DNA from: a virus
Taxonomy: Duplodnaviria > Caudoviricetes
Reading direction: 5' to 3' (one strand)
Length of the DNA: 64,000 bases
Virus record (IMG/VR): IMGVR_UViG_3300020718_000012
Coordinates: 3,710 to 67,709 of that record
Below, in pieces: positions 3,666 to 26,700 of this stretch. The notes below the pieces were generated by a model. That model ran no database searches and was not told where the DNA came from. It worked only from the letters and a program-made list of their open reading frames with translations. Each line of letters begins with the position of its first letter. Position 1 is the stretch's first letter. The position numbers were made by a program, and so were the translations under genes.

Positions 3666-3849
3666 TGTATCAGAATATGCATCTAAAATTGATCCATCGT
3701 TATTTAGAGCAAACAGGAAAAATCCTGATGCTACAATAACACAACAAGCAATTAAATATAGAATAAAACATAACCTACAATTACCTGAAGTGATAAAATA
3801 CAATAGGGTAGGTAAAGTTCATGTATTAACCGTAAACTCAAATTTTTAA
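3646..3849 (+). CDS. Putative small winged-helix/HTH DNA-binding protein
   Basis: ISVSEYA...TQQAIKYRIK...RVGKVHVL pattern resembles excisionase-like wHTH. Confidence 0.45.
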   Translation: MKTKQISVSEYASKIDPSLFRANRKNPDATITQQAIKYRIKHNLQLPEVIKYNRVGKVHVLTVNSNF

Positions 3850-5370: not shown

Positions 5371-6078
5371 TTAATTATTAGAATATTTAAATATCATCCC
5401 ATTATGATAGCTTCTTTCACCTACTAAAACCCTTCTAATATCATTTATATGCTTAATACCAAATTCATTAACAATATCTCTTGCGCAATCAAATGTCCCA
5501 ATAAGATTCATTTCTAAATCATAGCAATCAATTTTGCCTTTATATCTTGGATGACCTACTCCAGTTCTTTTTTGGGCAGCAATAGGCTGTTTTAACCCTT
5601 TCACCCAACTACTCCCACCTCTATTAGCATTACCTATTTTCTTTTTAGTTTCCTCTGATAATGGGGGTTTTTTTATGCCTAATTGAACTTTACTAATATA
5701 TTCTTTTGTTTCTTTTGTATGTTTTTTACCATAAAATGGATTATTAACACCTTTAGTCGCAATTGATATCTTTTGCCTAGTAAGCAAACTTGGGTTTTCG
5801 TTACACTCACCACCACCCGAAAGATTTGCTAATATGCCATCATTGTTAGCAATTCTACCATATAATGCAATAAATTCAATTTCTTTTACCTTTGACTCCT
5901 CAATAGAAATATTATCAAATAAAATTTCTATATCATAGGTAGTCCTACTAACTATGCCTTTCCAAATATTATTTCTTGCGTTTTTTTGCTTGGAACGTTT
6001 ATAATTACTATCACTACCTATACCTATGTAAAACGGTTCATTTTTATCATGCCTAATATGACGATATACATATGCCAT
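5371..6078 (-). CDS. GIY-YIG-type homing endonuclease with NUMOD3/NUMOD1 repeats
   Basis: AYVYRH...FYIGIG...R...E N-terminus; HTKETKEYIS and LSEETKKKIG repeats; IDCYDLEMNLIGTF C-terminus. Confidence 0.8.
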   Translation of the reverse strand: MAYVYRHIRHDKNEPFYIGIGSDSNYKRSKQKNARNNIWKGIVSRTTYDIEILFDNISIEESKVKEIEFIALYGRIANNDGILANLSGGGECNENPSLLTRQKISIATKGVNNPFYGKKHTKETKEYISKVQLGIKKPPLSEETKKKIGNANRGGSSWVKGLKQPIAAQKRTGVGHPRYKGKIDCYDLEMNLIGTFDCARDIVNEFGIKHINDIRRVLVGERSYHNGMIFKYSNN

Positions 6079-7100: not shown

Positions 7101-7616
7101 TTACGCTGAATAATCAATCGCATTAACCCTATTCATCCAACCTTTAATAAACTTCACTTGTGATGGGTTATTTTCTACAATACGATTATATTTATCGATT
7201 CTTTTTTGTTTTAATTTAGAATATAAATCTGCCCCATCATGACTATTCACTCCAGCTAATGTTTTACTACCAAAAATTCCATCAGCTTCCAATCCTAATA
7301 CTTGTTGGATATATTTTGTAATTGTGCCTACTCCTTGATTAATTGCACCATCTACTATGTATTCTGCTAATGATTGATTTTTGATTTCATCAGCTTTAAA
7401 TTTGTCCCAATACATTTTTTTATACATTGCTTTAGCATCATCTTTTGTTAATGCTTTTACATCTTCACATGTTGCATTTGGCTTATTAAAAAATGTTTTT
7501 ACATCATCTAATATTAAACCAAAATGTGTACATCCACCTGTATCGGTTGGATCATTTTCATAAACTGTTCCCTCAAATTTCAAAATATTTGGGAAGTACG
7601 GATCAAAATTTGCCAT
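7101..7616 (-). CDS. Endolysin, glycoside hydrolase family 108 with peptidoglycan-binding C-terminus
   Basis: FEG...NDPTDTGGCTHFG; DGIFGSKT; FIKGWMNR. Confidence 0.9.
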   Translation of the reverse strand: MANFDPYFPNILKFEGTVYENDPTDTGGCTHFGLILDDVKTFFNKPNATCEDVKALTKDDAKAMYKKMYWDKFKADEIKNQSLAEYIVDGAINQGVGTITKYIQQVLGLEADGIFGSKTLAGVNSHDGADLYSKLKQKRIDKYNRIVENNPSQVKFIKGWMNRVNAIDYSA

Positions 7617-9837: not shown

Positions 9838-10215
9838 TTAGTGTTGTTTATAGGATTTTTCTTCTACCAATTCAGAACCATATTTTTGGTTAATTTGTTT
9901 TTTAATAATGGCTCTGACATCATTTAATTGGTAAACTTCTCTAGCTAATTCCACAAAATTATCTCCAAAATGGCTTTTATGCTCACAATCCCTAAGATCA
10001 TCCTCTACTTTCCATAACTTTTTATTGATGTCATAAAGTTCTTGAGTAAATGGATCTGTTAATGTTTCTGGGTATTTTTTTGCTAATGCTGTTTTAATGA
10101 TTTTCCACTCTTTTTCAATGTTTGCAAGCTTTTCACTATCATGGATGAATAGCTTTTTGATGGTTAGGATAGTATACTTATCTACCACTTCACCTATACT
10201 TACTTCTATTTTCAT
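9838..10215 (-). CDS. DUF6165-like protein
   Basis: EVSIGEVVDKYTIL...INKKLWKVEDDLR...AREVYQLNDVRAIIKKQIN...SELVEEKSY. Confidence 0.75.
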   Translation of the reverse strand: MKIEVSIGEVVDKYTILTIKKLFIHDSEKLANIEKEWKIIKTALAKKYPETLTDPFTQELYDINKKLWKVEDDLRDCEHKSHFGDNFVELAREVYQLNDVRAIIKKQINQKYGSELVEEKSYKQH

Positions 10216-10219
10216 GATA

Positions 10220-10277
10220 TAAAGGTAATAATTTTATTAATATTATTTAATTTAATTAAATTAATTATATAGCTTTG
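10220..10277. promoter_or_regulatory. Divergent promoter region with perfect 18-bp palindrome
   Basis: TTAATTTAATTAAATTAA 10247-10264; TAGCTTTG 10270-10277 (+); near-consensus TACCTTTA (-) at 10220-10227. Confidence 0.65.
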
Positions 10278-10290
10278 CTAAAAAGATAAT

Positions 10291-11646
10291 ATGCCAACAA
10301 GCTATCCATTTTATAAAGATTCAGTTAGAAATTGGGTTTTACAGAATATACCATTAGATGCTAAAATACTAGATATTGGTGCTGGATGTGGCACTTATTC
10401 TGATTTATTGCGTGGATATGGATATAAAATGGATGCAATAGAAATATGGCAACCATATATAGAAAAATATAATTTAGAAAACAAATATGATAAAGTCTAC
10501 AATTGGAATGTAGTAAACATGCCTGCAAGTGCCTATGATTATTATGATTTTTTTATAATGGGTGATATCTTAGAACACTTGTCAATTGATGAAGGCCAAT
10601 GCCTATTAAGTTATTTAAGATTAAAAGGTAAAAAGTTTTTAATTGCAGTACCCTATTCAATGTTTCAAGATGAATATGAGGGAAATAAGTATGAAATCCA
10701 TTTACAGCCAGACTTAACACCAGATATAATGGAGCAAAGATACCCTGAACTTGAGCTTCTATATGGCAATGAGTTTTATGGTTATTATATAAACAAAAAT
10801 GTTAAAGATGAAAAAGCTTATGTCCTTTATGCTGATGACTCCTATTTGGATCTTGTGGTTTGCTGTTGTAATTCCATTAGAAATCATAGCTCTTATCCTA
10901 TTTACGTTTATATGCTTAATTCGGACAATAAAATAAACGTAGAAAATACATTTACCATTAGATGGGAATGTGATGTAAAACATTTACAGAAAAGAAAAGA
11001 TTACATAGATAGAGAAGATAATCAGATTTATAAACTTTTAATAGAAAGGCCTAAGATAGTAAAGCATGCACTAGAAAATTATGCTAATCAAGTAGCTTAT
11101 ATAGATACAGATAGTATAGCTACTAAGTATATAAATTTAATCTTTGATTATTTTGATGCTGAATCTAGCTATCCTTATTTCACTGAAGGTATATATGAAT
11201 ATCTTATAGTTAATGGTAGAGGTGGAGCTGAAAGTAGAGAAGATTTAAGTGGTACATTGGAAGCACCGGCATGTGAATTGTTTGGTTCAAATCAAATGGA
11301 AAGACACAACACCGGATATAGGCAAACAGGATATTTTGTAGCAGGGCAAAAATGTATTGATTTTTTAGAACTTTGGTATTATAGATGCAATCATCCGGTT
11401 ATACTAAAGGATAACGCTAAATACGCTAGCTTTAACGAAGAAACAATTTTACAAACAATGCTATATGATTACAAAGTATATAATGGATTACCATTAGTTT
11501 ATGTTAATGGATTAAGAAAAGGACTTGAATTTAAAGGATATTCATATATGGTTTCAGATTGGTTTAAAGTTCCTGCAAATGAAAAAGAATTGTTATTCTA
11601 TCATGGAGAAAAAAATATAGATAAGATAAATGAATTTATAAAATAA
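10291..11646 (+). CDS. Class I SAM methyltransferase fused to GT-A-like glycosyltransferase
   Basis: ILDIGAGCGTY and GDILEHL in N-terminus; YIDTDSI (DxD) and NEETILQ...FYHGEK in C-terminus. Confidence 0.75.
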   Translation: MPTSYPFYKDSVRNWVLQNIPLDAKILDIGAGCGTYSDLLRGYGYKMDAIEIWQPYIEKYNLENKYDKVYNWNVVNMPASAYDYYDFFIMGDILEHLSIDEGQCLLSYLRLKGKKFLIAVPYSMFQDEYEGNKYEIHLQPDLTPDIMEQRYPELELLYGNEFYGYYINKNVKDEKAYVLYADDSYLDLVVCCCNSIRNHSSYPIYVYMLNSDNKINVENTFTIRWECDVKHLQKRKDYIDREDNQIYKLLIERPKIVKHALENYANQVAYIDTDSIATKYINLIFDYFDAESSYPYFTEGIYEYLIVNGRGGAESREDLSGTLEAPACELFGSNQMERHNTGYRQTGYFVAGQKCIDFLELWYYRCNHPVILKDNAKYASFNEETILQTMLYDYKVYNGLPLVYVNGLRKGLEFKGYSYMVSDWFKVPANEKELLFYHGEKNIDKINEFIK

Positions 11647-11661
11647 CTAAATAAATAACTT

Positions 11662-11826
11662 ATGAAAAAAACATTAAATCAATTTATTGAAGAATTAGAA
11701 TTATTAAAAGAAGAATATATAAAAAGAGGGTATCATGATTATAATAATACAGATAGACAATTTTATGGTCAATTTGTAGAATTATGTCAAATATTAATAG
11801 AATTAAAAGAAAATGTAAAAAAATAG
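11662..11826 (+). CDS. Small hypothetical protein (not in ORF track)
   Basis: 54 aa MKKTLNQFIEELELLKEEY... Confidence 0.45.
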   Translation: MKKTLNQFIEELELLKEEYIKRGYHDYNNTDRQFYGQFVELCQILIELKENVKK

Positions 11827-11883
11827 TTTTGCGACATTTTTATGCGACAAAAATTTATTATCACGACAAAAAAAACAAAAAAA

Positions 11884-12183
11884 ATGACAACATTAAAATG
11901 GGTAAAAAAACAATTAGAAGAAAACTCATTAGAACCTTTATGTTTAAAAATGGATTGGAAAGACATAGATAAATTATTTTCCGAAGCTATGAAAATGGAA
12001 AAAGAAGATTTGTGTAATATGTTTATTGAGGGTTGCTTAAAAAATATGCCTATAAATACACCTTTTAGAGAAAATGAGTTTGAAGATAATGCAGAAATAC
12101 ATTATAATAAAATATTTAATACCAAAATCAAAATAAATCATTATTTACAAAATTATGAAAACAATAGTAACACCGAACATTAA
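11884..12183 (+). CDS. Small phage protein, EKE...AF/Y...YY family
   Basis: MTTLKWVKKQL...AMKMEKEDL...AEIHYNKIF; start at 11884 preferred. Confidence 0.6.
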   Translation: MTTLKWVKKQLEENSLEPLCLKMDWKDIDKLFSEAMKMEKEDLCNMFIEGCLKNMPINTPFRENEFEDNAEIHYNKIFNTKIKINHYLQNYENNSNTEH

Positions 12184-12355
12184 GTTAATTGAAACAGATT
12201 CTAATTTTTTAGAAAAAACTTCTAATAAAATTTTAATAAATGGCGAAGAATGGTATCAACCATTATGGTATAAAAAAATATCTGATGGTATTTTTATTCA
12301 ATATCAATTTGAAGAACTTCCAGATTTTATTAAAAAAGAAATAGAAGCACTATAA
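12155..12355 (+). CDS. Hypothetical protein
   Basis: 66-aa ORF. Confidence 0.55.
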   Translation: MKTIVTPNIKLIETDSNFLEKTSNKILINGEEWYQPLWYKKISDGIFIQYQFEELPDFIKKEIEAL

Positions 12356-12392
12356 TGGCAATCGTATATATACATAGAAGAAAAGATAAAAA

Positions 12393-14447
12393 ATGAAAGT
12401 ATTACTGCTTGAATTACACCTTAGCACAGGAGGAGCACCTCAATTTGCATTAAAAAGAATAGAAAGCTTACAGGCTTATACTAATATAGAAGTGTATTGC
12501 ATAGAACTTAATTTTCATGGAGCTGCTTATGTAGTACAAAGAAATAAAATATTAGATTTACTTGGTGATAGGTTTTATGAAGCTGGTGAGAATAAAATGC
12601 GAGTAATGGACATTATCAATGAAATAAAGCCTGATATAGTGCATATTGAAGATGTAGCAGAAAGATTACCTAAAGAACTTGCAAATGCTTTATATTCAAA
12701 TAATAGGTCTTATAGGATTATAGAAACACCACATGATGTAATGTTTAATCCAAATTCTGATAAAATATATCATCCTGATTTATACTTATTTTGCACTCCA
12801 TATCATATTGATACATATTCTGAAATGGAATCTATGTTTGAAGTAATAGAATATCCAATTGAAAAAAAATTTAATAGTGATTTCAATCCTTCTAGATGGG
12901 CTTCAAGATATAAATTAGGATTTGAAAATAACAAAAAACATGTATTAAATGTTGGTTTATGGACAAAAGGTAAAAATCAGGGTGAAATGCTAGAAATAGC
13001 TCGCAAATATCCTGATATACAATTTCACTCAGTTGGCAATCAAGCAATGAATTTTGCTGAGTATTGGGAACCATTAATGAAAGATGTACCTGCAAATGTT
13101 AAAATATGGGGTGAAAGGGCAGACATAGATACTTTTATGAATGCTGCTGATATTTTTATGTTTAATTCAATAAATGAATGTGCTCCACTAGTTTTAAAAG
13201 AAGCCATATCATACAAGCTTCCAATAGTTAGCCGCTTATTGCCGTCATATCCGACAGAATATGCTGATTATTTATACCCAATAGATGCAGACTTAAATAC
13301 TATTGATAAACCTAAGAGTGAATATGTTTTTAATAATGACTCATCCGTATTTGCTTTGCGACATGAAACTTGTTACGATAAGATATTAAAGTTTCCTATT
13401 AGAAAACAATCTGTAAAAATAACACAACATTTTGTTGATGGTGCATTTTTGGAAATTAAAGGTATTTCAAATAGTAATTTTAAAGTTCAATTTTTAGATG
13501 AAAAAGGCAAGATTGTTTATGAAAATATAATAAAGTCAAACCATTGGGTAAAATTAAATAAACAATACTATATCAAATACACAGCTAAGGTTTGGCAAGA
13601 TGGTCATATGATCTATAAAAACACCTTAGATTTTACAAATAAGACAGTATTTATAGTTATAGATAGTAAATCTCTGGGTGATACAATTGCATGGACAGGA
13701 TATGCCTTAAAATTTCAAGAAGCACATAACTGCCATGTGGTACTATCTACATTTTGGAATCATATATTAGATTATCCTGAATTAGAACTTGTTAAGCCTG
13801 GCACTACTATTAATTGTTATGCTTTATATAGAATAGGTTGGAAGTGGGATGAAAATAAAGAACCAGTTTTATGTAATACTATTCCTTTACAACAAGCAGC
13901 TACTAATATACTTGGTTTGGAATACATGGAAGTTAAGCCTAAGCTTAAAGACACATATGAAATACTTGGCAATAAAACTCCTAATTATGTTGCTATTGCT
14001 ACTAATTCTACTATGGAATGCAAGTTCTGGACTAGAGAAGGATGGCAGGAAGTAATAAACTATCTGGATGGTAAAGGATATAATGTAGTAAATGTTTCTA
14101 AAGAAGATAATCCATTTGATAATTGTTATAAAATAACAAATACTGACATTAGAAATACAATGGATGTTATTGCAGGAGCAAAACTATTTATTGGACTTAG
14201 TTCAGGGTTATCTTGGTTAGCATGGGCATTAAATCAAAAGGTGGTAATGATTTCTAACTTTACTGAATCTGACCATGAATTTGATTGTTATAGAGTAACT
14301 AACCCTGATGTATGTAATGGATGTTGGAATGATCCAAATATTAAATTAGATCCACATTGGAACTGGTGCCCACGAAATAAAGACTTTGAATGTCAAAGGA
14401 CAATACCAGCTAGTATGGTTATAGATAAAATAAAACAAATATTATGA
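12393..14447 (+). CDS. GT4-like glycosyltransferase fused to Aah/TibC-like protein O-glycosyltransferase
   Basis: N-terminal HLSTGGAPQ, KGKNQ, FNSINECAPLVLKEA (GT-B); C-terminal IDSKSLGDTIAW, FIGLSSGLSWLAWAL, and CNGC-x14-C-x7-C metal-binding cysteines. Confidence 0.8.
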   Translation: MKVLLLELHLSTGGAPQFALKRIESLQAYTNIEVYCIELNFHGAAYVVQRNKILDLLGDRFYEAGENKMRVMDIINEIKPDIVHIEDVAERLPKELANALYSNNRSYRIIETPHDVMFNPNSDKIYHPDLYLFCTPYHIDTYSEMESMFEVIEYPIEKKFNSDFNPSRWASRYKLGFENNKKHVLNVGLWTKGKNQGEMLEIARKYPDIQFHSVGNQAMNFAEYWEPLMKDVPANVKIWGERADIDTFMNAADIFMFNSINECAPLVLKEAISYKLPIVSRLLPSYPTEYADYLYPIDADLNTIDKPKSEYVFNNDSSVFALRHETCYDKILKFPIRKQSVKITQHFVDGAFLEIKGISNSNFKVQFLDEKGKIVYENIIKSNHWVKLNKQYYIKYTAKVWQDGHMIYKNTLDFTNKTVFIVIDSKSLGDTIAWTGYALKFQEAHNCHVVLSTFWNHILDYPELELVKPGTTINCYALYRIGWKWDENKEPVLCNTIPLQQAATNILGLEYMEVKPKLKDTYEILGNKTPNYVAIATNSTMECKFWTREGWQEVINYLDGKGYNVVNVSKEDNPFDNCYKITNTDIRNTMDVIAGAKLFIGLSSGLSWLAWALNQKVVMISNFTESDHEFDCYRVTNPDVCNGCWNDPNIKLDPHWNWCPRNKDFECQRTIPASMVIDKIKQIL

Positions 14448-14731
14448 AAACAGCAATGCAAGAACTAATGGAATTAAATGATTTTCTTAAAATAATGGGA
14501 GTAACTATTGAATGGGAAAAATATCTTGAAAAAGAAAAAGAACAGATATGTAATGCTTATGTCGATGGATTAGAAGGACCATATTTGGGAGCAGAACAAT
14601 ACTACAACCAAAACTATAATTTAAAAACAAGTCAAGTATTAATATCTACTAGCGATAATACAACAGAATGGATAACCGAAGTGAAAGATGGGATTACAAT
14701 ATATCAAAGTAAACCAAAGAATAACATATAA
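14444..14731 (+). CDS. Small phage protein, EKE...AY...YY family
   Basis: MKTAMQEL...EKEKEQICNAY...AEQYYNQNY. Confidence 0.65.
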   Translation: MKTAMQELMELNDFLKIMGVTIEWEKYLEKEKEQICNAYVDGLEGPYLGAEQYYNQNYNLKTSQVLISTSDNTTEWITEVKDGITIYQSKPKNNI

Positions 14732-14733
14732 AT

Positions 14734-14766
14734 AAAAGAAGCAGGTTTTTAGGCCTGCTTTCTTTT
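14734..14766. terminator. Bidirectional intrinsic terminator
   Basis: AAAAGAAGCAGG..CCTGCTTTCTTTT between convergent genes. Confidence 0.75.
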
Positions 14767-14780
14767 TATAGGGGGAAGAA

Positions 14781-15119
14781 TTATTTACTTAAATCAGTAT
14801 GAATATCTACTATTGTTTGAGATACTACACCCCATTTAACTTGGTTAAAAAGCTCTTTTAACTTGGTAAAATCAGCATCTTCTAATTCTAATGTAGCTTT
14901 CTTTTCTAAGTCAGCATCAGTAAAGTTTTCTGGTTTAATGTCAAAAAGCTCTTTATGCTCATCTACTTTGTTAAGTAAACGAAGTCTTTTTACCATTTCA
15001 TCTACATTAAATCCTTCTTGTGGATTATTGATAGCTGTTTTTAATAAATCATAAGTGGTAAAGAATGTATCTCTACCATTGATGTTTTCTTTTGAAACTT
15101 TTAATTCAATTGATTTCAT
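14781..15119 (-). CDS. Putative tail-fibre assembly chaperone
   Basis: Small acidic helical protein (LELEDADFTKLKELF) at the end of the fibre cluster. Confidence 0.45.
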   Translation of the reverse strand: MKSIELKVSKENINGRDTFFTTYDLLKTAINNPQEGFNVDEMVKRLRLLNKVDEHKELFDIKPENFTDADLEKKATLELEDADFTKLKELFNQVKWGVVSQTIVDIHTDLSK

Positions 15120-15136
15120 AAAATATATATTTTAAT

Positions 15137-15162
15137 CAAAATTAGTTTAATTAATTTAATTA
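15137..15162 (-). promoter_or_regulatory. -7 box with TAATTAAATTAA box
   Basis: Minus-strand TAATTAAATTAA (15151-15162) then TAATTTTG (15137-15144). Confidence 0.6.
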
Positions 15163-15172
15163 AAAAAATATT

Positions 15173-15538
15173 TTAGATACCACTCGTACCTGAAGTTCCA
15201 CTAGTGCCAGATGTTCCTGATGTACCTGAACTACCGCTTGTACCTGATGTACTAGGAACTGGTGTCACATAATCACCTGTAATAGTTAATTTTAATGTGG
15301 ATGCTATCCAATCCCAAGCATAATTATTAGTTTCATAAGCTAAGTAATCTGCACCTGTCATTGTTAAATTTCCTTGTGCTACCATTGCTCCAACTGTTAA
15401 ATCATCATTTTCTTCTAATAGAGCATAATAAAAGGTTGCTTGAGTAGCTAAGTTATCACTAATAACATAAGCATTTAAGATTTTAGCTTGGACTGCTGAA
15501 CCATTTGCCCAAGAAGTTACTGGTTGAATTGTTTTCAT
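15173..15538 (-). CDS. Tail-fibre-associated protein with C-terminal (GTS)n tail
   Basis: Globular ~95 aa then PSTSGTSGSSGTSGTSGTSGTSGTSGI. Confidence 0.7.
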   Translation of the reverse strand: MKTIQPVTSWANGSAVQAKILNAYVISDNLATQATFYYALLEENDDLTVGAMVAQGNLTMTGADYLAYETNNYAWDWIASTLKLTITGDYVTPVPSTSGTSGSSGTSGTSGTSGTSGTSGI

Positions 15539-15565
15539 TTTTTGTTATTTTATTTTTTAATATTA

Positions 15566-16414
15566 TTAAGTACAAGCTAAATCATAAGATGTACTATTAC
15601 CATATAAATATACCGTTTGATTAGCAAATATAGCTGGTGGACTCACTCTTCCTGGACATCCTGATGGTAAAGATGCATATGCCCCTACACCCACAGAAGC
15701 TGCTGTAGTACCATCATTTATATCTATATTATCTCCTATGGCAAGTATTAAAGTGGTTCCTGATGTTACACTTATATTTCCAAAAGATTGATCAGATGTA
15801 CTTACAGCTGGTGAAGATATCTTAGTATAGCTTGAACCACCATTAGTTGAATACCATACATATCTTCCTGATCTTGCAGTACTTTGTTTTGCATGTATAG
15901 TTACTGTATATGTAGGTGGAGAACAAGAACCTATAGATGATACAGTCATATATGATGTAGTTTGAACTGAATTATATACCCAATATCCTTGAAGATAATA
16001 ATACCCAACTGGAAAAACAACTGTAGGATATAAATAAGTAGAGTATAAGACTGTTCCAGTTGTTAAAACACCATTCCAAGCAACACCTGCTGTTCCATAT
16101 GTTCCTAATGCACAAGCTAAAGCTGAAGTAGAATATGGATTTAATGTCCCATATGGACTACTTGTAAAACTATAACCATATAATAAATCACTTGAATTAG
16201 TTAAGTTTCTTTTTACCACTAATTGATTACTTGCTTTACTTGCATATGAGCTATTTCCTGTATTAAAATTTACATATGTATTTGCTTGAGAAGCTGTAAT
16301 TTCTTTATTTGTTGCAGGGATAGAAGTCTTAGCAGTAAATACACCAGTATTAACTGCATCTTGTAAATTATTACATGAAACTGTTTGATTTGCCAATAAT
16401 CCTGCCCAACTCAT
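15566..16414 (-). CDS. Putative tail fibre/receptor-binding protein
   Basis: Ser/Thr/Gly-rich beta-type sequence; MSWAGLLANQTVSCNNLQDAV N-terminus; next to the long fibre. Confidence 0.6.
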   Translation of the reverse strand: MSWAGLLANQTVSCNNLQDAVNTGVFTAKTSIPATNKEITASQANTYVNFNTGNSSYASKASNQLVVKRNLTNSSDLLYGYSFTSSPYGTLNPYSTSALACALGTYGTAGVAWNGVLTTGTVLYSTYLYPTVVFPVGYYYLQGYWVYNSVQTTSYMTVSSIGSCSPPTYTVTIHAKQSTARSGRYVWYSTNGGSSYTKISSPAVSTSDQSFGNISVTSGTTLILAIGDNIDINDGTTAASVGVGAYASLPSGCPGRVSPPAIFANQTVYLYGNSTSYDLACT

Positions 16415-19400
16415 TAGTTAATTAATTTAGCTTTTAATTCATTAATTTCTTTTTCTAATCTAGCTATTTTAGCTGTATGTACTTCTCTGTATGATAAACT
16501 TAACATACCATCTGCATTTATTGAAATTGCATTATCTAAAATTCCTTCTACATCTTGTGCAAAATAACCTAATTCTCTTTTTCCATTTTTGATGTATAAT
16601 TTGGCAACTATATTTTCAATATTTTTAGCTTGGAAATTATCTTCTATAATTATTTTTATTCTTTTATCTGAAGATTCAAAATAAGATGCTGCTGTTACAG
16701 CTCCTGTAGATGAAGCAATTTCCAATAAATTTGCATTACTTGTTCCATCATATACTAAAAATCCAGGACTAGGTTGAGAAAAACTAGAGTTTGTTGAAAA
16801 TAATGCTATAGCATGTCCACCTGAGCCTGCATTATTCAATACTATTGCATTATCCCATACACCACTACCATTTACTTGAATTGCTGCACTATTAAGATTA
16901 CCTGAATATCCAGAATTAACTTGTAATCCTCCAGTTGCTGTCATTGAACCATTTACTTGAAATCTAGCTCCATTATCTGTTGTAGTTCCTATTAATACAT
17001 TACCTCCGCTTGGGTTTATAGATAATGGCAAAGATGTACCTACACCGTCACTTGATTGAATCCAACCTGCATAAGAACCTGAAGCCAATCCACCTATTGT
17101 TATGTTTGCATAACCACCACTTTGATAAAATCTTCCATAAGCATTACCTCCTGTTAAATTTGGAGAAGCCGCAGTTCCTAATACATCTAATTTATTACTT
17201 GGACTTGTTGTTCCTATACCTATATTGCCTGGTGCAGTAATAGTCATTCTTTCACGTCTTGCAGCAGCATTATAAGTATAGAAACTTAATGCACCCGCTA
17301 CTCCTGGTGTAGCATCATAAGATGCTCCAATTCCTGGTGCTTGATTATAGTAAGTTGCATTATCAAAATTTGAGTCACCAATATATAATTGTGCTCCATT
17401 TGTGCCTGTTCCACTTCCAACATACATTCCAATATTTCCATTAGCTTGTAAAACACTTCTTGGACTTGTTGTTCCTATACCTACATTACCTGTACTTAAT
17501 ATTGTAAATAAAGGTGTTCCACTATATATATGTTGGAAAGCTTTACTATTATCTGTATAAGTATACAATGCACCTGCTAATGCTCCGTTTGCAGTTGATG
17601 AACTAGTATTTTTAATTAAATAACCATTAGAAGTACCTGCATCAGTTAAATTTATATATGAATATAAACCAGCTGTTGAACTTATTGTATTATGATTATT
17701 TGTGCCTTGAGAAAATGTATTTCCATATACTTGGAAATTATCACCACTATCCACTGATGTATTTCCTACTATTACATTTCCTCCACTGGTAACTTTTAAA
17801 TTTGCACTAGAAGAACCACCTGCTTTTAAATGAATTGCTCCTGTATCATTATATATTACTATATTACCTACAGTTGCATTATAAAAATAACCATCATTTG
17901 CCGACAACCAAGCTGGAGGAGTAAAACTAGCTGCTACTTTCCCCATATTGAAATAACCATTACTTGAAACTAAGTCTATATATGATTGAGAATTAGCTCC
18001 ATCTGTTGTATTTACAATTTGAAATTGATTAGCAACAGTTGCTGAGTTATTAGTAATTACTGTTGAATATACTGAAGATGTAGTAGATGTTGATATTTTA
18101 CTATTACCAATTGCTGAACCACTTGTCCAAATTGGTATATATCCTGTTGTACCTGTACCTGTAACTGGATTAGTTAATGTAGAAACGCTACCATCAGCCA
18201 TTAAATATTGAGAAGATGTTCCACCTGATTTAATTAAACTATTAGCTGTAAATGCACCTGTACCACTTAATGTGGCAACAGAAGTATTTCCACCATACCA
18301 ATTATATCCAGATGTTGAAGCATCAACAGTAAAAAACATTGTGGCACTATTAATACCTATAGTATAACCTACTAATGTAGAAGAAACATTATCATATAAT
18401 ACCAATTTAACCCCTGCACTATATGAATTAAGTGTTGGAGCTGCTACTCCACCAGGAGAAATCCATTTAATTAAATTAGATGTTGAATTAGTTAAATAAA
18501 TAGAAGTACCTCCTGATGCAATTTGTAATTTACCACCATTATCTGTTGTACCACCAATTATAACATTAGAACCTGATAAAGTAGATAAAGCTAATGGAAT
18601 CGCAACTGATGGAGAAATTGATGCATACTTTGTTGTTGCTCCAATTTGATTTATTTTAAATTGCAAATCTGCATCTGTACCATTTGATAAATTAAGCAAC
18701 TGTGATATACCACTCCCACTTGTAGTGTCCCATGCTTCTATTTTAAAACTAGGACTTGTAACATTAATACCCAATCTACCAGATGCATCTAATATTGCTT
18801 TTTGCGTAGTTCCACCTGTAGCAAATCTAATAACACCTGATGCATTATTTGCTACTATAGCTAACCCTGCAGTTGTTTGATTATAAAAACCTCCCTGATT
18901 TGCTATTATTACACCAAGTCCTGAATAATTTAATCCTGTATGGTAAATCTGTGTTTGATATGTTCCATTGCTTGCAAAGAATTGTGCTGCTGCTGCTGCT
19001 CCTGCATTATCATTTGTAACTTTAATAGCAATATCTCCATTAAAAGATTTATATGCTTCAACCAATTGAGATGGAGATGTTGTATTTATTCCAACATTTG
19101 TTCCATTATCATATATTAAACTATTACCTATTGTAGTACCAGTTCCAGTAAACTTAGCTACATAGTTTGCTGTTCCACTAAATTGAGCATTGGTTCCACT
19201 AGTACCTGATGTACCACTAGTACCAGACGTACCTGTGGTTCCACTTGTACCATTAACACCAGATGTACCAGAACTTCCTGATACACCACTACTACCAGAA
19301 CTACCACTTGTACCTGTCGTTCCTGAAGAGCCTGAGCTTCCTGATGAACCGCTTGTTCCTGTGGTTCCACTAGTTCCTGAGCTACCACTTGTTCCACTTG

Positions 19401-21933
19401 AACCAGATGTACCTGTTGTACCTGATGTTCCTCCTGTACCATTGGTTCCACTTGTTCCAGAAGTTCCTGTCGTACCTGAAGTACCACTAAATCCTGAAGT
19501 ACCAGAAGAACCACTTGTACCAGTTGTGCCACTAGTACCATTAGAACCATTTATACCACTTGAACCACTTGTACCACTAGTACCACTTACTCCACTAGAA
19601 CCTGAAGTTCCATTTATACCAGATGTACCAGATGAACCACTTGTACCATTTATTCCTGAAGTACCTGATGATCCTGAAGTTCCATTAACTCCACTTGTAC
19701 CACTTGTTCCTGTGGTTCCACTTGAACCAGATGTGCCACTAGTACCACCTGTTCCATTAGTACCAGATGTACCACTAGAGCCTGAAGTTCCTGTGGTTCC
19801 AGAAGTTCCTGTAGTACCACTAGTACCACTTAAACCAGATGTACCACTAGATCCGCTTGTTCCTGTAGTTCCACTTGAACCTGAACTACCTGTTGTTCCA
19901 CTTGTACCACTTGTTCCACCAGTTCCATTTGTACCTGATGTGCCACTAGTTCCTGAAGAACCACTAGTTCCTGTTGTGCCTGATGTACCTGAAGTTCCAC
20001 TTACTCCACTAGAACCACTTACACCACTTGTTCCGCTTGTACCTGTAGAACCTGAAGTTCCACTTGTTCCACCAACACCAGAAGTACCAGAAGTACCACT
20101 CGTTCCTGAAGGAGCATTTAAAGAAGTTGTTATATATGAATAATTAGCTGTTCCTTCTGTATAGAATGTAAATGTGCTACTGCCTGCACCGCTGTTATCT
20201 GCTAATAAAACAGCATATAATCTGTCTGTTGCATTTAATGCCACCGATGGTATAAAACCATCAAAATAATAAGAAACTACACCTACACTAGTTGATAAAA
20301 CTGTTGTACCTGATGTAGCAATTAATGTTGAAACACCACCTGCACTATATTTATATAATTTAGAATATATTAAAACACGACCACTTAAACCAACAGTAAC
20401 ATTACCAATATTTAATGACCAAGACCAAATACCAGCAGGTAATTGTGTTATGTTTGGAACATTACTATCTGTAGCAAATGTGTCCCATATATACCCACTT
20501 ATCCCACCACCAACTGTTACTGCTAAAGTTTGTTCAGCAGCCCCTGAAGTTAAGGTTGACATTTCCTTATAAGTAGGAGAACCAAAGTTTGTATTGGTTA
20601 ATACAGATTGATTTAAATAATATATTTGCCCTGCGCTGATGCCGCTAACCCCTGAAGATCCAGATGTTCCTGCTGTCCCACTTGTACCAGACGTTCCAGT
20701 CGTACCTGAACTTCCACTTGAGCCTGAGCTGCCGCTTGTTCCAGTTGAACCAGATGTGCCTGAACTTCCACTAGTCCCAGATGAACCTGAAGTGCCACTT
20801 GTACCTCCTGTACCATTCGTACCAGATGTACCAGAGCTTCCAGAACTTCCAGTAGTTCCACTTGTACCTGTTGTGCCAGAAGTTCCAGAACTACCACTTG
20901 TACCAGAACTACCACTAGTTCCTGTTGTTCCTGATGAACCTGAAGTTCCAGTTGAACCACTAGTACCTGAAGTCCCTCCTGTACCATTAGTACCTGAAGT
21001 TCCACTTGTTGCACTAGTTCCTGAAGTTCCACTTGTTCCTCCAGAACCATTTGTTCCAGAAGTTCCAGATGTGCCTCCTGATCCATTAGTCCCTGAAGTA
21101 CCAGAAGTTCCTGAAGTTCCACCTGAACCATTTGTACCACTAGTTCCACTTGTTCCATTAGAACCATTTATTCCACTAGTACCAGAGCTACCACTTGTTC
21201 CAGTAGTTCCTGATGTACCTGTTGTTCCACTTGTCCCACTTGAACCTGAAGTACCGCTTGAACCTGAAGTACCTGTAGTACCAGAGGTTCCACCTGTACC
21301 ATCAGTTCCCGATGTTCCACTTGTTCCTGTTGTACCGCTTGTGCCACTGCTTCCGCTAGTTCCGCTAGAACCGCTAGTTCCAGTAGTACCGCTTGTACCA
21401 CTTGTTGCAGAAGTACCTGAAGTTCCAGATGTACCACCTGTACCATCTGTACCACTTGTTGCAGAAGTTCCACTTGTTCCTGATGTTGCAGATGAACCAG
21501 AGCTTCCTGAAGTTCCAGAAGTACCTGTCGTTCCGCTAGTACCTGTAGTACCAGAAGTTCCTGAAGTGCTACTTGAACCAGAGCTACCTGATGTACCTGC
21601 TGAACCACTTGTTCCACTGCTTCCTGTTGATCCACTCGTACCAGACGTTCCAGTTGTTCCTGAAGTACCTGATGTGCTAGAGCTACCACTACTACCAGAA
21701 GTACCAGCAGAACCTGAAGTTCCACTAGTTCCAGTAGTACCTGAAGTTCCACCACTACCATCAGTACCACTTGTTCCTGTTGTTCCACTAGTGCCGCTAG
21801 TACCAGAAGTACCAGAACTACCTGATGTTCCTATAGTTCCTGAAGTATCAGCTGCGACAATACCATCTACTGCAACAAGAATACCATTCTCGTTTCTAAT
21901 CTTTAAATCACCTGAAATTAAATTCTGTATCAA
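16414..21933 (-). CDS. Long tail fibre with Gly-X-Y (GTS/GSS/GTT) repeats, GNVGIGTTSP repeats and C-terminal peptidase S74 intramolecular chaperone
   Basis: Two Gly-X-Y blocks; several GNVGIGTTSP-type repeats; SSDKRIK...GYFAQDV...LEKEINELKAK; TTG start. Confidence 0.85.
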   Translation of the reverse strand: MIQNLISGDLKIRNENGILVAVDGIVAADTSGTIGTSGSSGTSGTSGTSGTTGTSGTDGSGGTSGTTGTSGTSGSAGTSGSSGSSSTSGTSGTTGTSGTSGSTGSSGTSGSAGTSGSSGSSSTSGTSGTTGTSGTTGTSGTSGSSGSSATSGTSGTSATSGTDGTGGTSGTSGTSATSGTSGTTGTSGSSGTSGSSGTSGTTGTSGTSGTDGTGGTSGTTGTSGSSGTSGSSGTSGTTGTSGTTGTSGSSGTSGINGSNGTSGTSGTNGSGGTSGTSGTSGTNGSGGTSGTSGTNGSGGTSGTSGTSATSGTSGTNGTGGTSGTSGSTGTSGSSGTTGTSGSSGTSGSSGTSGTTGTSGTTGSSGSSGTSGTNGTGGTSGTSGSSGTSGSSGTSGSTGTSGSSGSSGSSGTTGTSGTSGTAGTSGSSGVSGISAGQIYYLNQSVLTNTNFGSPTYKEMSTLTSGAAEQTLAVTVGGGISGYIWDTFATDSNVPNITQLPAGIWSWSLNIGNVTVGLSGRVLIYSKLYKYSAGGVSTLIATSGTTVLSTSVGVVSYYFDGFIPSVALNATDRLYAVLLADNSGAGSSTFTFYTEGTANYSYITTSLNAPSGTSGTSGTSGVGGTSGTSGSTGTSGTSGVSGSSGVSGTSGTSGTTGTSGSSGTSGTSGTNGTGGTSGTSGTTGSSGSSGTTGTSGSSGTSGLSGTSGTTGTSGTTGTSGSSGTSGTNGTGGTSGTSGSSGTTGTSGTSGVNGTSGSSGTSGINGTSGSSGTSGINGTSGSSGVSGTSGTSGSSGINGSNGTSGTTGTSGSSGTSGFSGTSGTTGTSGTSGTNGTGGTSGTTGTSGSSGTSGSSGTSGTTGTSGSSGSSGSSGTTGTSGSSGSSGVSGSSGTSGVNGTSGTTGTSGTSGTSGTSGTNAQFSGTANYVAKFTGTGTTIGNSLIYDNGTNVGINTTSPSQLVEAYKSFNGDIAIKVTNDNAGAAAAAQFFASNGTYQTQIYHTGLNYSGLGVIIANQGGFYNQTTAGLAIVANNASGVIRFATGGTTQKAILDASGRLGINVTSPSFKIEAWDTTSGSGISQLLNLSNGTDADLQFKINQIGATTKYASISPSVAIPLALSTLSGSNVIIGGTTDNGGKLQIASGGTSIYLTNSTSNLIKWISPGGVAAPTLNSYSAGVKLVLYDNVSSTLVGYTIGINSATMFFTVDASTSGYNWYGGNTSVATLSGTGAFTANSLIKSGGTSSQYLMADGSVSTLTNPVTGTGTTGYIPIWTSGSAIGNSKISTSTTSSVYSTVITNNSATVANQFQIVNTTDGANSQSYIDLVSSNGYFNMGKVAASFTPPAWLSANDGYFYNATVGNIVIYNDTGAIHLKAGGSSSANLKVTSGGNVIVGNTSVDSGDNFQVYGNTFSQGTNNHNTISSTAGLYSYINLTDAGTSNGYLIKNTSSSTANGALAGALYTYTDNSKAFQHIYSGTPLFTILSTGNVGIGTTSPRSVLQANGNIGMYVGSGTGTNGAQLYIGDSNFDNATYYNQAPGIGASYDATPGVAGALSFYTYNAAARRERMTITAPGNIGIGTTSPSNKLDVLGTAASPNLTGGNAYGRFYQSGGYANITIGGLASGSYAGWIQSSDGVGTSLPLSINPSGGNVLIGTTTDNGARFQVNGSMTATGGLQVNSGYSGNLNSAAIQVNGSGVWDNAIVLNNAGSGGHAIALFSTNSSFSQPSPGFLVYDGTSNANLLEIASSTGAVTAASYFESSDKRIKIIIEDNFQAKNIENIVAKLYIKNGKRELGYFAQDVEGILDNAISINADGMLSLSYREVHTAKIARLEKEINELKAKLIN
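19192..20109 (-). repeat. Gly-X-Y coding repeat block 2 (~306 aa)
   Basis: 9-nt period degenerate repeat encoding GTS/GSS/GTT/GTN triplets. Confidence 0.95.
20641..21846 (-). repeat. Gly-X-Y coding repeat block 1 (~402 aa)
   Basis: Same triplet repeat; includes a duplicated GSAGTSGSSGSSSTS segment. Confidence 0.95.
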
Positions 21934-21935
21934 TT

Positions 21936-22466
21936 TTAAACGTATTTAAAAGTTGTAGATTTTGGAGAATAATTTATTCTATAATATAATCTTTTTCTTG
22001 ATATCCCAAGCGCATCAGCTGCCTCTTGTGCTCCAATATAGTATATTCCAGTTGCTTCGTCTAAAATTATTTTATCATGAGCTTTTTTACCATTTGCAGC
22101 ACCACATTTTTTGCCATTTAAACTAAAGGCTTTTCTCATTTTATCAGACACAACTCTTAATCCACTATCAGAACAATGTTTTTGATTTTCCGATGCTGTC
22201 ATCCATTCTAAATTGCAAACTAAATTATTTAATTTATTGCCATCCATATGATTAACTTGAGGTTTATTTTCAGGATTAGATATATAAGCTTCTGCTACTA
22301 ATCTATGAACTGAAAAATATTTATAATCACCTTCTCCATCAAATAATTGGATTTGATTATAACCAGCATTTGTTACTTTTAACTTAAGAAACTTCATGGT
22401 ATAAAGGCTAAAAACCTTTCCATCAAGTGTAATTAAATAATTTTCAAATCCTTTTATCTGTTTCAT
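21936..22466 (-). CDS. NUMOD4-HNH homing endonuclease
   Basis: IKGFENYLITLDGKVFS; VHRLVAEAY...VNHMDGNKLNN...NLEW...EN. Confidence 0.88.
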   Translation of the reverse strand: MKQIKGFENYLITLDGKVFSLYTMKFLKLKVTNAGYNQIQLFDGEGDYKYFSVHRLVAEAYISNPENKPQVNHMDGNKLNNLVCNLEWMTASENQKHCSDSGLRVVSDKMRKAFSLNGKKCGAANGKKAHDKIILDEATGIYYIGAQEAADALGISRKRLYYRINYSPKSTTFKYV

Positions 22467-23739: not shown

Positions 23740-26700
23740 TTATTGGTTTTCTTCATCTTCATTTGTACCACCTATACCTCTTTCTTGTCTATCTTGTCTT
23801 TGAGCTTCTTTACCTTCATTTGATTCATCTTTTTCTTTTTTACCAAATAAAGATTCTTTTGCTTGTTCAGCTGCATAAGTTTTTAATCTATTAATTTCTT
23901 TATTAAATTCTTCTTTATGTTCTTTTTGATATTTAGCATATGGTACCCTTTCACCAAATTCAACAGTTATACCATTTTTCTTAACTTCATCTACATATTT
24001 ATCAAAAAGCTTATTTCTTAATACTTTATATTGATTATATTCCTCATCAGTTATAAGTTTGCCACCTTTTTTATAATTTATAATATTATCAGATGGTCCT
24101 TCATTTTCTGCTTTATCAAATATATTTTTTAATTTAAGTCCTGTTAAAAAAGATGTTGTACCACTTAGTAATCCTTTCATTATATCATTCCATTGGGCAT
24201 CTGAAACTCCACTATCTTGAGCTGATTTTTTGGTTTCTTTAATACCTTCTGCAATTGGTAATGGTGCAAAATGATTAGCAATATACTCCCCCCAACCTAA
24301 TTTTCTTTTACCTGGAGCTGGGACATCACTAGAATAAGGAACTACATTACCGCTATAATCTCTTCTAAAAGCAAGATCTATAGCTAATGAAGCAATTGGT
24401 GAAAGCTTACCTCTTATATATTTACCAACAGCACCAGTTAAAGCTTCAGTTCTATTTTGATTTTTAGGTAAATATCTTTCATTTTCAAAACTAATTTTAG
24501 CAATTGTAGCTAATAAACCTATTGTTGTTAATAATCCACCACTTAAATCAACTGTTACATCATGACTACCAAATTTAGGAAGCAACCAGTCAGGTCTAGT
24601 TGGATGAGTCCAGTTAACTTCTTTATCAGGATTTACCATATGTTGTATAGCTGAATTAGCACCTAATAATAATAAATAAGTACCTAATTGTCTACCAGCC
24701 CTGCCAGCCCATGCTTTTGAATAAGCTTTTTGACTAGGAGTTGCATCTTTAATAAATCCTTGCATAGATGGTATTAGAGTTGCTAATCCTTTATTAACTT
24801 TAGATAAACCAGATTTACTTATATAAGTTGCTGCTTTAAAAGGAGCTAATATTTTTTCCCATCTAGAACCTTCCATACTAGATGAAAATGTTGCTCCCTT
24901 GACAAGTGAACCAATATCCCCACTCATATCTATATTGGTACCACCAGTCCAGTTATTAATTAATCCTGCAATTCTTTCTAATGCTTTTTCATCTTTTTTT
25001 TCAGATTCACTTAATTTATTATATTCATAATTAAATATTTCCTGTCTTAATACTTTTACAGCATTAAATCCTCTTTCGCCAGCTTTACCAAATTTTCCTA
25101 AATATTTTTGGAATGCTTGCTCCGAATCAAAATTAATATTATCTGGATCATTTTGTAATCCAGCTTTTTTAGCTTTTTCAAATAATGGATCATTTCTTAA
25201 AGCATCCATATGACTTTCATAGTATGTTGGATTTTTTTCATATGAAAATCTATAAGAATTTTCTACTGCTTTTAATGTTTTTATGAAATGTCTTGGATCT
25301 AATATATTTGTTATTGCATGTGTTCCTATAAATACATGTGAGTGACCAAATGTTTGTGCTGCTTTTGGTACACCTACAATTGTTTTAACTGCTTTGTCAA
25401 ATTTACTTTCATTTCTGTTATCTATATATCTTTGTAATGCTTGTCTGTTTTTGTTTAATTCAGATCTTTTTGTATACATTTCACCTGAAGCAGCTTTTGT
25501 TTTAGGAGTAATGATAGCATTAGATACTTGATCATTTTTTAAACCTAAATCTTCTGCTGTTTTTGCAATAGACTCAGGGAAACTAAATCCTTTATTATAA
25601 TATGTATTCTTTGCATAATTCCATATTGTTTTAGATTCTTCTGGAGTAAATTTATTATCTTTTTTATCTACAAATTGTTTTTGTAATTTACCTAATTCTT
25701 CTTCATCTTTTTGCTTTTGCTCTACTTCAGTTAATGGTTTTTCCATTTTAGATTTAACCAAACCAAGCTTTTCTTTTTCATCTTGGATTTGATCCATTAA
25801 CTCTTTTTCTCTTTCAGATAATTCTCTTTTAGGTCCTTGCTGTTTTACTTTACCTTGCTTTAAATCTTCTAATTCTTTTTCAAGACGCTTAATGTTTTTA
25901 GCTTCAGGAGTTTCTTTTATAGCAGATTCGTAATGTGCTGTTAAATCTTTTTCTAATTTATCTTTATCTCTATCTGATAAATTTTTATACCAATCATTAT
26001 CTTTAATAGCATCAATAATTGCAACAACTCCATCAGCAATTTCTCCTGTTTTTTCAATTGCTTTAGCTCCAGCTTCTACTACATCATTCCAAGCAATACC
26101 CTGTTTTTGTATAGGTATTTCATTTCCATTTTCATCTTTAAAAGTAAATGGAGTTGTTTTTATTTTTCTAAATCTATCAGCAACTTTTTTAGCTTTTTCA
26201 GTATAAGTTTGACTTTTTTGAACTTCTTTTTTAGTTACCTTAGGATTATGTTCATTTTCTAATTGTTCTATAAATTTAGCTTCAGCATCTGTAGCTTCCT
26301 GTTGAAGCTTTTGATCTTTAGTAGTAAATTTTTCTACTTGTTGTTTTTCTGCTTCTGTTGCATCTTTACCTTTTGCTTTCTCTAATCTTCTAACTTGTGC
26401 TGTAAATGAACCTGTATCCAAGTCTGTACCACCTTGTAATGATGTAAAAGCATGTGCAGCTAATGTATTTAATTTACCTGTTCTATCAAGATATTTATTT
26501 AGTTCAGCAAGTTTATCTTTATAAATGACACTATTTCTACCTTCAGGTTCAGATTTAGCAATTTTTTCAAGTTGTTTTTGTAATTCAGCTGCATGCGCCT
26601 CCCCAATAGATATTCTATCATGAAGTTCAAAATCAGCTCTATTATCAATATCTTCAGGAGTTGCTCCTCCTTTTAATAATATTTGTCCTCTTCTTTTATA

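Follow-up and report, generated by a model that had tools for sequence, protein, structure and literature searches.

In Escherichia coli, TibC and Aah, the enzymes paired with TibA and AIDA-I (bacterial autotransporter heptosyltransferases, BAHT; TIGR04414; structures 4RAP/4RB4), stand for a family of which all characterised members O-glycosylate Ser residues of repetitive proteins in the cytoplasm; TibC does so as a ring which threads its repetitive substrate (PMC4358343). Sugars on Thr are also known from collagen-like sequences. Without sugar the peptide (Gly-Pro-Thr)10 adopts a random coil, and it becomes triple-helical once its Thr residues are glycosylated; triplets with Thr occur anomalously often in the collagens of viruses and bacteria, and glycosylation has been suggested to stabilise the Thr/Ser-rich Gly-X-Y sequences of viral and bacterial collagen-like proteins, the responsible enzymes and their action before folding being posed as an open question (PMC11923368). 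Here we describe a 64,000-nucleotide stretch of the genome of an uncultured tailed phage (Caudoviricetes; IMG/VR record IMGVR_UViG_3300020718_000012, positions 3,710 to 67,709; referred to as the window hereafter), in which a small operon containing a TibC/Aah-like glycosyltransferase gene converges on the gene of a collagen-like tail fibre. We suggest, with a probability of roughly 0.7 and on the strength of homology and gene neighbourhood, that this is a phage-encoded protein O-glycosylation system with the phage's own fibre as the acceptor.

The central enzyme of the locus (12393-14447, plus strand, 684 aa) is confirmed by Pfam and NCBIfam profiles as a GT4 domain fused to a full TibC/Aah-like module. 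The GT4 domain (12393-13406, residues ~1-330; GT-B, retaining-type) matches Glycos_transf_1 on residues 168-281 (41.2 bits, cut-off 26.4) and carries the E-x7-E motif as E262-x7-E270. Its sole PDB relative under E 0.01 is WaaG/RfaG (E 1e-5), which adds glucose to a heptose of the lipopolysaccharide (LPS) core, a match that is suggestive with regard to the sugar, no more. The remainder of the protein (13407-14447) is a complete module consisting of a beta-barrel, a GT9-like catalytic domain and a four-Cys iron finger: residues 339-683 score 230.9 bits against TIGR04414 (curated cut-off 200; 232.3 bits in the genome search of the record) and cover model positions 8-374 of 374, residues 521-629 match Glyco_transf_9, and the sequence of the TibC crystal structure 4RAP is matched at E 7e-42. 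A preliminary description of this DNA had read the gene as a GT4-like domain followed by a C-terminal domain with three motifs, and had proposed the TIGR04414 hidden Markov model (HMM) as a check. Besides the HMM match, all three motifs were recovered from the translation, SLGDTIAW at residues 427-434, GLSSGLSWLAW at 601-611 and CxxC-x14-C-x7-C at 641-667.

Residue equivalences come from counting along the 4RAP alignment, with the key residues of TibC taken from the paper on its structure (PMC4358343). The catalytic base Asp-110 corresponds to D430, inside SLGDTIAW, Thr-226 and Lys-230 to T540 and K544, Trp-305 to W608 within GLSSGLSWLAW, and the iron-binding Cys-339/342/358/370 to C641/644/659/667. 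None of these residues varies when the enzyme is aligned with nine distant single-domain homologues, the four-Cys motif is retained in 94/96 viral and 42/42 classical sequences, and three of the four TibC sugar-binding residues are retained in the window enzyme. We predict from these comparisons that the TibC-like module is a Ser/Thr O-glycosyltransferase which primes the repeats. One could instead see it as a non-catalytic scaffold or chaperone for a repetitive fibre, with any sugar transfer left to other domains: the TibC ring does thread its substrate (PMC4358343), and the fibre only weakly matches the usual C-terminal chaperone domain (see below). However, invariance of the catalytic Asp and of the donor-binding Thr, Lys and Trp in distant homologues would not be expected of a pure scaffold, and the thumb with which TibC builds its ring is missing, which makes this explanation very improbable in our view.

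The fibre (16414-21933, minus strand, 1839 aa) matches Pfam Collagen (PF01391) at E 6e-78 (256.9 bits, cut-off 27.2). It contains 228 Gly-X-Y triplets (684 residues) in seven blocks, the longest run being 102 triplets, and its collagen-like Gly-Thr/Ser-Ser/Thr blocks at 20635-21840 and 19189-20106 (minus strand) flank a globular insert. The X position is occupied by T (69%) and S (25%), the Y position by S (71%), T (13%) and N (7%), so that X and Y together are ~89% Ser/Thr; there is no Pro in the triplets and only three charged residues. Where ~700 residues, two-thirds of them Ser/Thr, had been noted earlier, a proline-free collagen-like repeat is the more exact description. A non-collagen shaft leads to a C-terminal tail-fibre module (16417-17016, minus strand): the last 200 aa align with several tail-fibre PHROGs at the C-terminal ends of the latter (E 3e-8), without any contribution from collagen. 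A Peptidase_S74 C-terminal chaperone was considered as well and rejected (Pfam E 0.066, below threshold); the tail-fibre module call draws on the PHROG evidence only. Long other-frame open reading frames (ORFs) lie over the repeat region at 19190-20143 (+), 20639-21949 (+), 19158-19550 (-) and 20613-21788 (-); they are the expected by-product of triplet-repeat DNA, not separate genes. Two genes downstream of the fibre, a 121-aa protein (15173-15538, minus strand) ends, in its translation, in a tail of ~8 Gly-Ser/Thr-Ser triplets. Having homologues in 26 related viral loci, it is a candidate for a second, small acceptor.

This pairing of enzyme and repeat is not peculiar to the window. Among 21 close viral relatives, a convergent S/T-collagen gene is present at every locus with enough downstream DNA; the cassette is conserved, unlike those stretches of the fibre that lie outside the collagen repeats, and C-terminal parts show little or no similarity between loci. 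Relatives of the phage are abundant in metagenomes from freshwater. For a wider sample, a profile of distant homologues retrieved at least 588 viral stretches, of which the best 80 were analysed (contigs of 50-321 kb). An ORF was classed as S/T-type Gly-X-Y if Ser and Thr made up at least 65% of its X and Y residues, and was counted if it lay within 10 kb of the enzyme. Such an ORF was found in 48/60 TibC-positive viral loci with at least 6 kb of downstream sequence. In most of the 12 exceptions examined, the enzyme adjoins other Ser/Thr-rich repeats (Thr-Pro mucin-like, poly-Ser/Thr, or 14-aa Gly/Ser/Asn), so the clade may be able to use repeats of several kinds. The proteins with alternative repeats (L057 1141-4080, L091 853-4095, L097 4777-6675; L037 14466-20954, L067 13794-17318, L097 17019-21065; L089 1028-2515) include long Thr-Pro mucin-like tracts, poly-Ser/Thr and 14-residue repeats of the GGGxxNxASGxxSxV type, reminiscent of adhesin head repeats.

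The association also holds when the search starts from the repeat. Viral records were chosen by a degenerate DNA pattern for seven Gly-Ser/Thr-Ser/Thr triplets alone, forming an arbitrary sample among the matches listed, and the whole records were then searched with TIGR04414; control records were chosen by a Gly-Pro-X (Pro-type collagen) pattern. Among the matches listed, TIGR04414 was present in 18/48 S/T-type records (5/5 of those at least 90% complete and 8/9 of those at least 60% complete), compared to 0/45 Pro-type controls (0/21 at least 60% complete). The nominal Fisher p of 1.5e-6 for this comparison is a guide only, as the records are not phylogenetically independent. In 11 reverse-sampled positive records (52-548 kb; 30-44% TibC identity to the window) both genes lie within 10 kb of each other in 8, and in several of the 11 the enzyme and the S/T-Gly-X-Y gene are directly adjacent and co-directional, not convergent. 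Given such varied gene orders, the enzyme-repeat pairing is therefore not one inherited gene order. The co-occurrence across phage genomes which the preliminary description had proposed to look for is thus strongly positive in both directions, and it is specific to Ser/Thr-type Gly-X-Y repeats.

Scanning prokaryotes, with each species represented by one genome, gave 80 cellular loci. Those at least ~36% identical to the phage domain often have a small neighbour protein with an S/T-Gly-X-Y-type tract, and a TibC-like gene stands beside a (GSS)n or (GTS/GTT)n protein in Arenicellales, Methylococcales, Burkholderiales, Bdellovibrionota and metagenome-assembled genomes (MAGs) of Bacteroidota. In Arenicellales and further Gammaproteobacteria the neighbours are small and predicted to be lipoproteins, each combining a signal peptide and a Cys lipobox with a globular part, a (GSS)n tract and a tail of poly-Asp. 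Genes of this kind are found, in bacterial MAGs and chromosomes, at L311 11197-11847, L314 11175-11795 and 12128-12604, L320 11220-11840, L326 11249-11875 and L315 7796-8482; we know of no description of (GSS)n-poly-Asp lipoproteins beside TibC-like genes. Methylococcales have secreted (GTS/GTT)n proteins in this place, and further tract neighbours occur in Polaromonas, Pseudobdellovibrionaceae and Bacteroidota, as well as in two MAGs labelled archaeal (tract within 10 kb). Lower-identity cellular loci (Burkholderia, Bradyrhizobium, Franconibacter, Selenomonadaceae and others) had no such tract neighbour.

In a FastTree phylogeny of 168 domains, a branch with Shimodaira-Hasegawa-like (SH-like) support of 100 splits 41 classical rows, including two E. 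coli plasmid enzymes, one of them directly upstream of autotransporter genes, from the rest. The window lies on the other side, together with the bacterial (GSS)n lipoprotein loci. Among loci with adequate flanks, an S/T-Gly-X-Y neighbour is present in 0/20 on the classical side and 66/81 on the window side. No autotransporter gene was seen among the window ORFs examined, and the neighbour of the enzyme is the collagen-like fibre. By sequence, then, the window enzyme passes the family HMM yet belongs to a sister clade with a different partner. The initial label of TibC/Aah-like stands as far as the family HMM, the catalytic residues and the Cys finger are concerned, but has to be qualified by the placement of the enzyme outside the autotransporter-linked clade and by the deletion of the thumb, as seen in the tree and in residue spacing, respectively.

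The 15/81 informative loci without an S/T-Gly-X-Y neighbour, most of the 12 exceptions above adjoining other Ser/Thr-rich repeats, would suit an explanation in which the acceptors are other virion or phage proteins (capsid, tail tube or a 282-aa neighbour) and Gly-X-Y is not modified. This would be similar to mycobacteriophages, whose glycans are carried on the C-termini of capsid and tail-tube subunits according to the passages of PMC12619734 that cite Freeman 2023. Yet in phages and bacteria alike, nothing but the Gly-Ser/Thr-Ser/Thr tract is conserved next to the enzyme, the remainder of the fibre being freely exchanged, and we consider such acceptors unlikely.

The same body of evidence bears on the possibility that what the transferases modify during infection is the envelope of the host, be it the LPS core, the capsule or a surface protein, for instance so as to prevent superinfection, their position beside the fibre reflecting no more than accessory-gene clustering at the end of the structural module. 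GT9 and GT4 are the classic LPS-core families, the fusion enzyme does weakly match LPS heptosyltransferases I/III, RfaQ and WaaG, the cassette is a transcription unit of its own with a bidirectional terminator at its end, and serotype-changing phage transferases are known, as mentioned in review text in PMC12619734. However, the matches to LPS heptosyltransferases (I/III, RfaQ) are 60 orders of magnitude weaker than those to TibC/Aah (3e-7 vs 2e-68), and an envelope target fails to explain the Ser/Thr-specific two-way association, the adjacency under different gene orders in unrelated phages, and the same pairing with (GSS)n lipoproteins on bacterial chromosomes. We regard it as quite improbable. 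DNA glycosylation was set aside as well, as the enzyme family acts on proteins and a non-exhaustive scan of the window proteins found no DNA-hypermodification genes. The proposal already made in the preliminary description, that these enzymes glycosylate the GTS repeats, is supported as a sequence-based inference because the co-occurrence is Ser/Thr-specific and reaches unrelated phages and cellular genomes, the family HMM is passed and the catalytic residues of TibC are retained.

The partner enzymes point to a glycan of more than one sugar. The gene at 10291-11646 (plus strand, 451 aa), described earlier as a methyltransferase-GT fusion, is predicted to encode a class I S-adenosylmethionine (SAM) methyltransferase (~1-175) fused to a GT-A glycosyltransferase (~176-451), as seen from an AlphaFold model (predicted local distance difference test, pLDDT, 81) searched with Foldseek. 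At the level of profiles, Methyltransf_23 remained below its Pfam cut-off (22.8 bits, cut-off 27), and the C-terminal half matched no Pfam, NCBIfam or PHROG family. By structure, the N-terminal part resembles class I methyltransferases bound to SAM or S-adenosylhomocysteine, including CysG/BelI (E ~2e-7), and the C-terminal part resembles the GT6-type GT-A enzymes GTA/GTB and BoGT6a (E ~1e-7; template modelling score, TM, 0.5-0.56 on target), with a DxD at 272-274 (IDTDS motif) whose D272 and D274 are invariant in 14 homologues. The model thus predicts a glycan-extending and methyl-capping enzyme. Divergent from the transferase operon is the gene of a 125-aa protein (9838-10215, minus strand), which was correctly recognised at the outset as DUF6165-like (Pfam PF19662, E 1.8e-12, above the cut-off). 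It is modelled as a four-helix bundle (pLDDT 89) with no informative PDB relative in the structure search, was not found in 21 cellular genomes having TibC-like genes, and returned phage relatives only in a profile search; it is an accessory, non-obligate part of the cassette. Over 95 related viral loci, GT4 fused to or beside TibC occurs in 93, GT-A in 81, the methyltransferase in 50 and DUF6165 in 38. From these frequencies we conclude that the core of the cassette is GT4-TibC plus GT-A, methylation and DUF6165 being optional.

Other modification genes are found beside the cassette in some relatives. In 18 loci a NoeE-like gene (Nod-factor sulfotransferase as best NCBIfam match, E ~1e-10, far below the cut-off) lies ~1-5 kb from the TibC-like gene (L029, L033, L037, L041, L059, L064, L067, L068 and 10 others), and in a few related viral loci an FkbM methyltransferase adjoins the cassette, so that the glycans of some phages may be sulfated or methylated. 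Microcystis phage Mel-JY01 (PP395634.1; L023 4750-8430) encodes a 1226-aa protein which is annotated only as 'methyltransferase FkbM' and has a C-terminal TibC-like module (36% identity, E 6e-50), with a gene for a 'cytidylyltransferase like protein' 3 kb downstream. There is no collagen gene within 12 kb of this TibC-like fusion, and the phage is uninformative with regard to pairing.

As for the donor, sequence evidence makes L-glycero-D-manno-heptose from host ADP-heptose the most likely sugar. The stereoselectivity position (P300 in TibC, S294 in Aah) is Ser in all 90 viral copies, as in Aah, which uses L,D-heptose, and this fits ADP-L,D-heptose, the epimerase product. Further to that, in L040, L067, L068 and L077 the TibC gene is followed directly by two genes whose best matches are heptose-pathway families: an HldD-like ADP-glyceromanno-heptose 6-epimerase at E 3e-49 (next best GalE, 1e-12; below the curated cut-off) and a heptose-7-phosphate kinase-like protein at E 2e-40 (next best ribokinase, 1e-13; likewise below the curated cut-off). 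The preliminary description had recognised no heptose-synthesis genes and had allowed for a donor other than heptose. Its first statement applies to gmhA and rfaE domain II, neither of which is matched in the record; its second is right in that the sugar is an indirect assignment, and is tempered by the HldD-like and kinase-like genes of the four loci and by the Ser at the Aah S294 position, which make heptose the likelier donor. With regard to the host, MAGs holding binned related phage-like contigs carry GmhA-like genes, which is a weak hint. Two such contigs of 8 kb (L298) and 2.3 kb (L299) were binned in Sediminibacterium and Chitinophaga MAGs; the former carries GT4-TibC, MT-GT and DUF6165 together with homologues of the 121-aa protein and of a 112-aa protein, the latter GT4-TibC and the GT-A part only. 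Both look like phage DNA binned with Chitinophagaceae genomes, and we rejected a Chitinophagaceae host as firm evidence from these contigs, retaining it as a weak hint.

From the domain identities, the conserved catalytic residues and the two-way, Ser/Thr-specific association, which are observed, we propose the following acceptor, sugar, sequence of events and role. In the cytoplasm of the host, at a late stage of infection, the TibC-like module would place the first sugar, most likely L-glycero-D-manno-heptose, on the Ser/Thr hydroxyls of the (Gly-Thr/Ser-Ser/Thr)n repeats of the fibre, and probably also of the same tail in the 121-aa protein. Extension of the glycan would then fall to the GT4 domain of the same fusion and to the GT-A enzyme encoded separately, and capping to the methyltransferase domain. 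The resulting dense glycans probably confer stability, hydration and shielding from proteases and antibodies. Having no proline and almost no charge, the repeats probably rely on glycosylation in place of the hydroxyproline or salt-bridge stabilisation of other collagens. In its strongest form, the sister clade would be a dedicated family heptosylating Ser/Thr of proline-free (Gly-Ser/Thr-Ser/Thr)n, with the sugar replacing hydroxyproline in triple-helix folding; this version is tentative and we hold it for possible rather than probable. The acceptor may well be right and the repeats still be a disordered, mucin-like bottle-brush spacer which glycans stiffen and shield without enabling a triple helix. 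Supporting such a spacer are the 228 triplets without Pro and almost without charge, from which a stable unaided triple helix is not expected, the random-coil state of unglycosylated (Gly-Pro-Thr)10 (PMC11923368), the monomer-like bacterial partner lipoproteins with their (GSS)n-polyAsp tails, and the Thr-Pro mucin-like repeats which stand in for Gly-X-Y at some loci. Against it, Gly is strict at every third position in runs of up to 102 triplets, the fibre is of the trimeric type with a C-terminal fibre module, and glycosylation of Thr has a known stabilising effect on triple helices (PMC11923368). This structural variant is possible though doubtful, and is the only one of the alternatives to remain a serious contender.

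A number of points weigh against fibre glycosylation as we propose it. The case for the clade as a whole is made of homology and gene neighbourhood; the co-occurrence counts are phylogenetically non-independent and their p-values nominal; and the phage-side loci without an S/T-Gly-X-Y gene within 10 kb amount to ~19% of those that are informative. Formation of a triple helix by the repeats is putative, and its stability without modification is doubtful (PMC11923368). GT9 also includes non-heptose transferases. Neither gmhA nor rfaE domain II was matched in the whole 67.7-kb record, in which rfaE domain I and hldD were not searched, and neither was found in four other complete TibC-positive phages, save weak nucleotidyltransferase matches in two; any donor must therefore come from the host. 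Heptose-pathway-like genes occur in 4 of ~106 related loci only, all of them below curated cut-offs. Finally, opposite TibC Arg-286 the alignment has a Thr, preceded by an Arg at a distance of two residues, and the beta-hairpin thumb (Phe-265/Val-266), which is needed for the TibC dodecamer, is gapped in the 4RAP alignment. From K230 to G298, the segment that contains the thumb, the spacing is 68 residues in every one of 35 classical sequences but 56-58 in 90 viral sequences. For these reasons, the mechanism and the oligomeric state may not be those of TibC.

The IMG/VR record (67.7 kb, 100% complete according to CheckV) lies within the window for nearly its whole length; the window has a G+C content of ~30%, and no tRNA genes were found in it. 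A long minus-strand structural operon comprises terminase (48144-50189), portal (45669-48086), very large virion proteins and the fibre gene, and the small plus-strand transferase operon converges on its distal end. Between the two, a terminator scan placed a bidirectional terminator-like hairpin at 14738-14761 (both strands). A 95-aa ORF (14444-14731, plus strand) whose start overlaps the transferase stop codon has no family match in Pfam, NCBIfam or PHROG and is not conserved, with a homologue in one related locus only. Directly upstream of the fibre gene is an HNH/NUMOD4 homing-endonuclease-like gene (21936-22466, minus strand), and a NUMOD3/NUMOD1 endonuclease-like gene (5371-6078, minus strand) lies near the lysis region; a GH108 endolysin is encoded at 7101-7616. 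The two endonuclease-like genes could help in moving fibre modules between phages. A 2556-aa ORF of the structural operon (23740-31410, minus strand) has no PHROG match at all.

The locus and its relatives point to a specific candidate enzyme family for the glycosylation of Ser/Thr-type Gly-X-Y sequences. With its at least 588 viral stretches, ~1,000 clusters at 50% identity and several bacterial phyla, this family would widen TibC-type protein O-glycosylation from a few pathogen adhesins to a far larger set. Many environmental phages are suggested to carry glycan-coated fibres, with a bearing on adsorption, stability and recognition. If true, the strongest form given above would define a new class of glyco-collagen, found in the fibres of hundreds of phage lineages and in surface lipoproteins of diverse bacteria. 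The 121-aa protein offers a small, natural candidate substrate for experiments, and the enzymes could serve in making glycosylated collagen-like materials.

Full-text literature searches turned up nothing on DUF6165, nor any paper tying TibC/BAHT to phages or collagen-like proteins. Compared to TibC-TibA and Aah-AIDA-I, the phage system has a homologous full-length module with the same beta-barrel, GT9-like GT-B core and four-Cys iron finger, shares the catalytic Asp and the Thr/Lys/Trp donor contacts, likewise has its enzyme gene next to the gene of a long, highly repetitive Ser-rich protein, and is presumed to act in the cytoplasm. It differs in belonging to a separate clade (SH-like 100) with the thumb deleted and GT4 fused, in having as partner a Gly-X-Y collagen-like fibre (or bacterial lipoprotein) instead of a beta-helical autotransporter passenger, and in its extra transferase and methyltransferase domains, which imply an oligosaccharide where TibC/Aah add single heptoses. 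Virion glycosylation in mycobacteriophages (Freeman et al. 2023, PMC10527164, as cited in PMC12619734) similarly involves phage transferases near structural genes and a proposed shielding role. As described in PMC12619734, however, other enzyme families act there, on C-terminal extensions of the capsid and tail-tube subunits of phages with actinobacterial hosts, and neither collagen-like repeats nor a BAHT-type enzyme are involved. Riftia cuticle collagen and (Gly-Pro-Thr(Gal))10 peptides likewise have a Thr sugar in Gly-X-Y which replaces hydroxyproline as a stabiliser; that system is animal, uses galactose and keeps proline at X, and no prokaryotic or viral enzyme family is assigned there (PMC11923368). 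The closest functional analogue is SgtA of Clostridioides difficile, encoded next to bclA3. As in the exosporium systems SgtA-BclA3 and BclA of Bacillus anthracis (PMC7157674), a glycosyltransferase gene lies directly beside a collagen-like gene, and on the SgtA side the sugar is O-linked to Thr (Ser being accepted too) in Gly-X-Thr triplets of a surface filament. Unlike the phage enzyme, SgtA is a GT-A O-linked N-acetylglucosamine transferase unrelated in sequence to TibC, the BclA repeats are Gly-Pro-Thr whereas X and Y of the phage repeats are both Ser/Thr with no proline, and those systems act on Firmicutes spores, not on virions. Already known, each by itself, are protein O-heptosylation by this enzyme family, collagen-like proteins that carry sugars, and the glycosylation of virions; what is new here is their combination in a distinct, very widespread sister clade.

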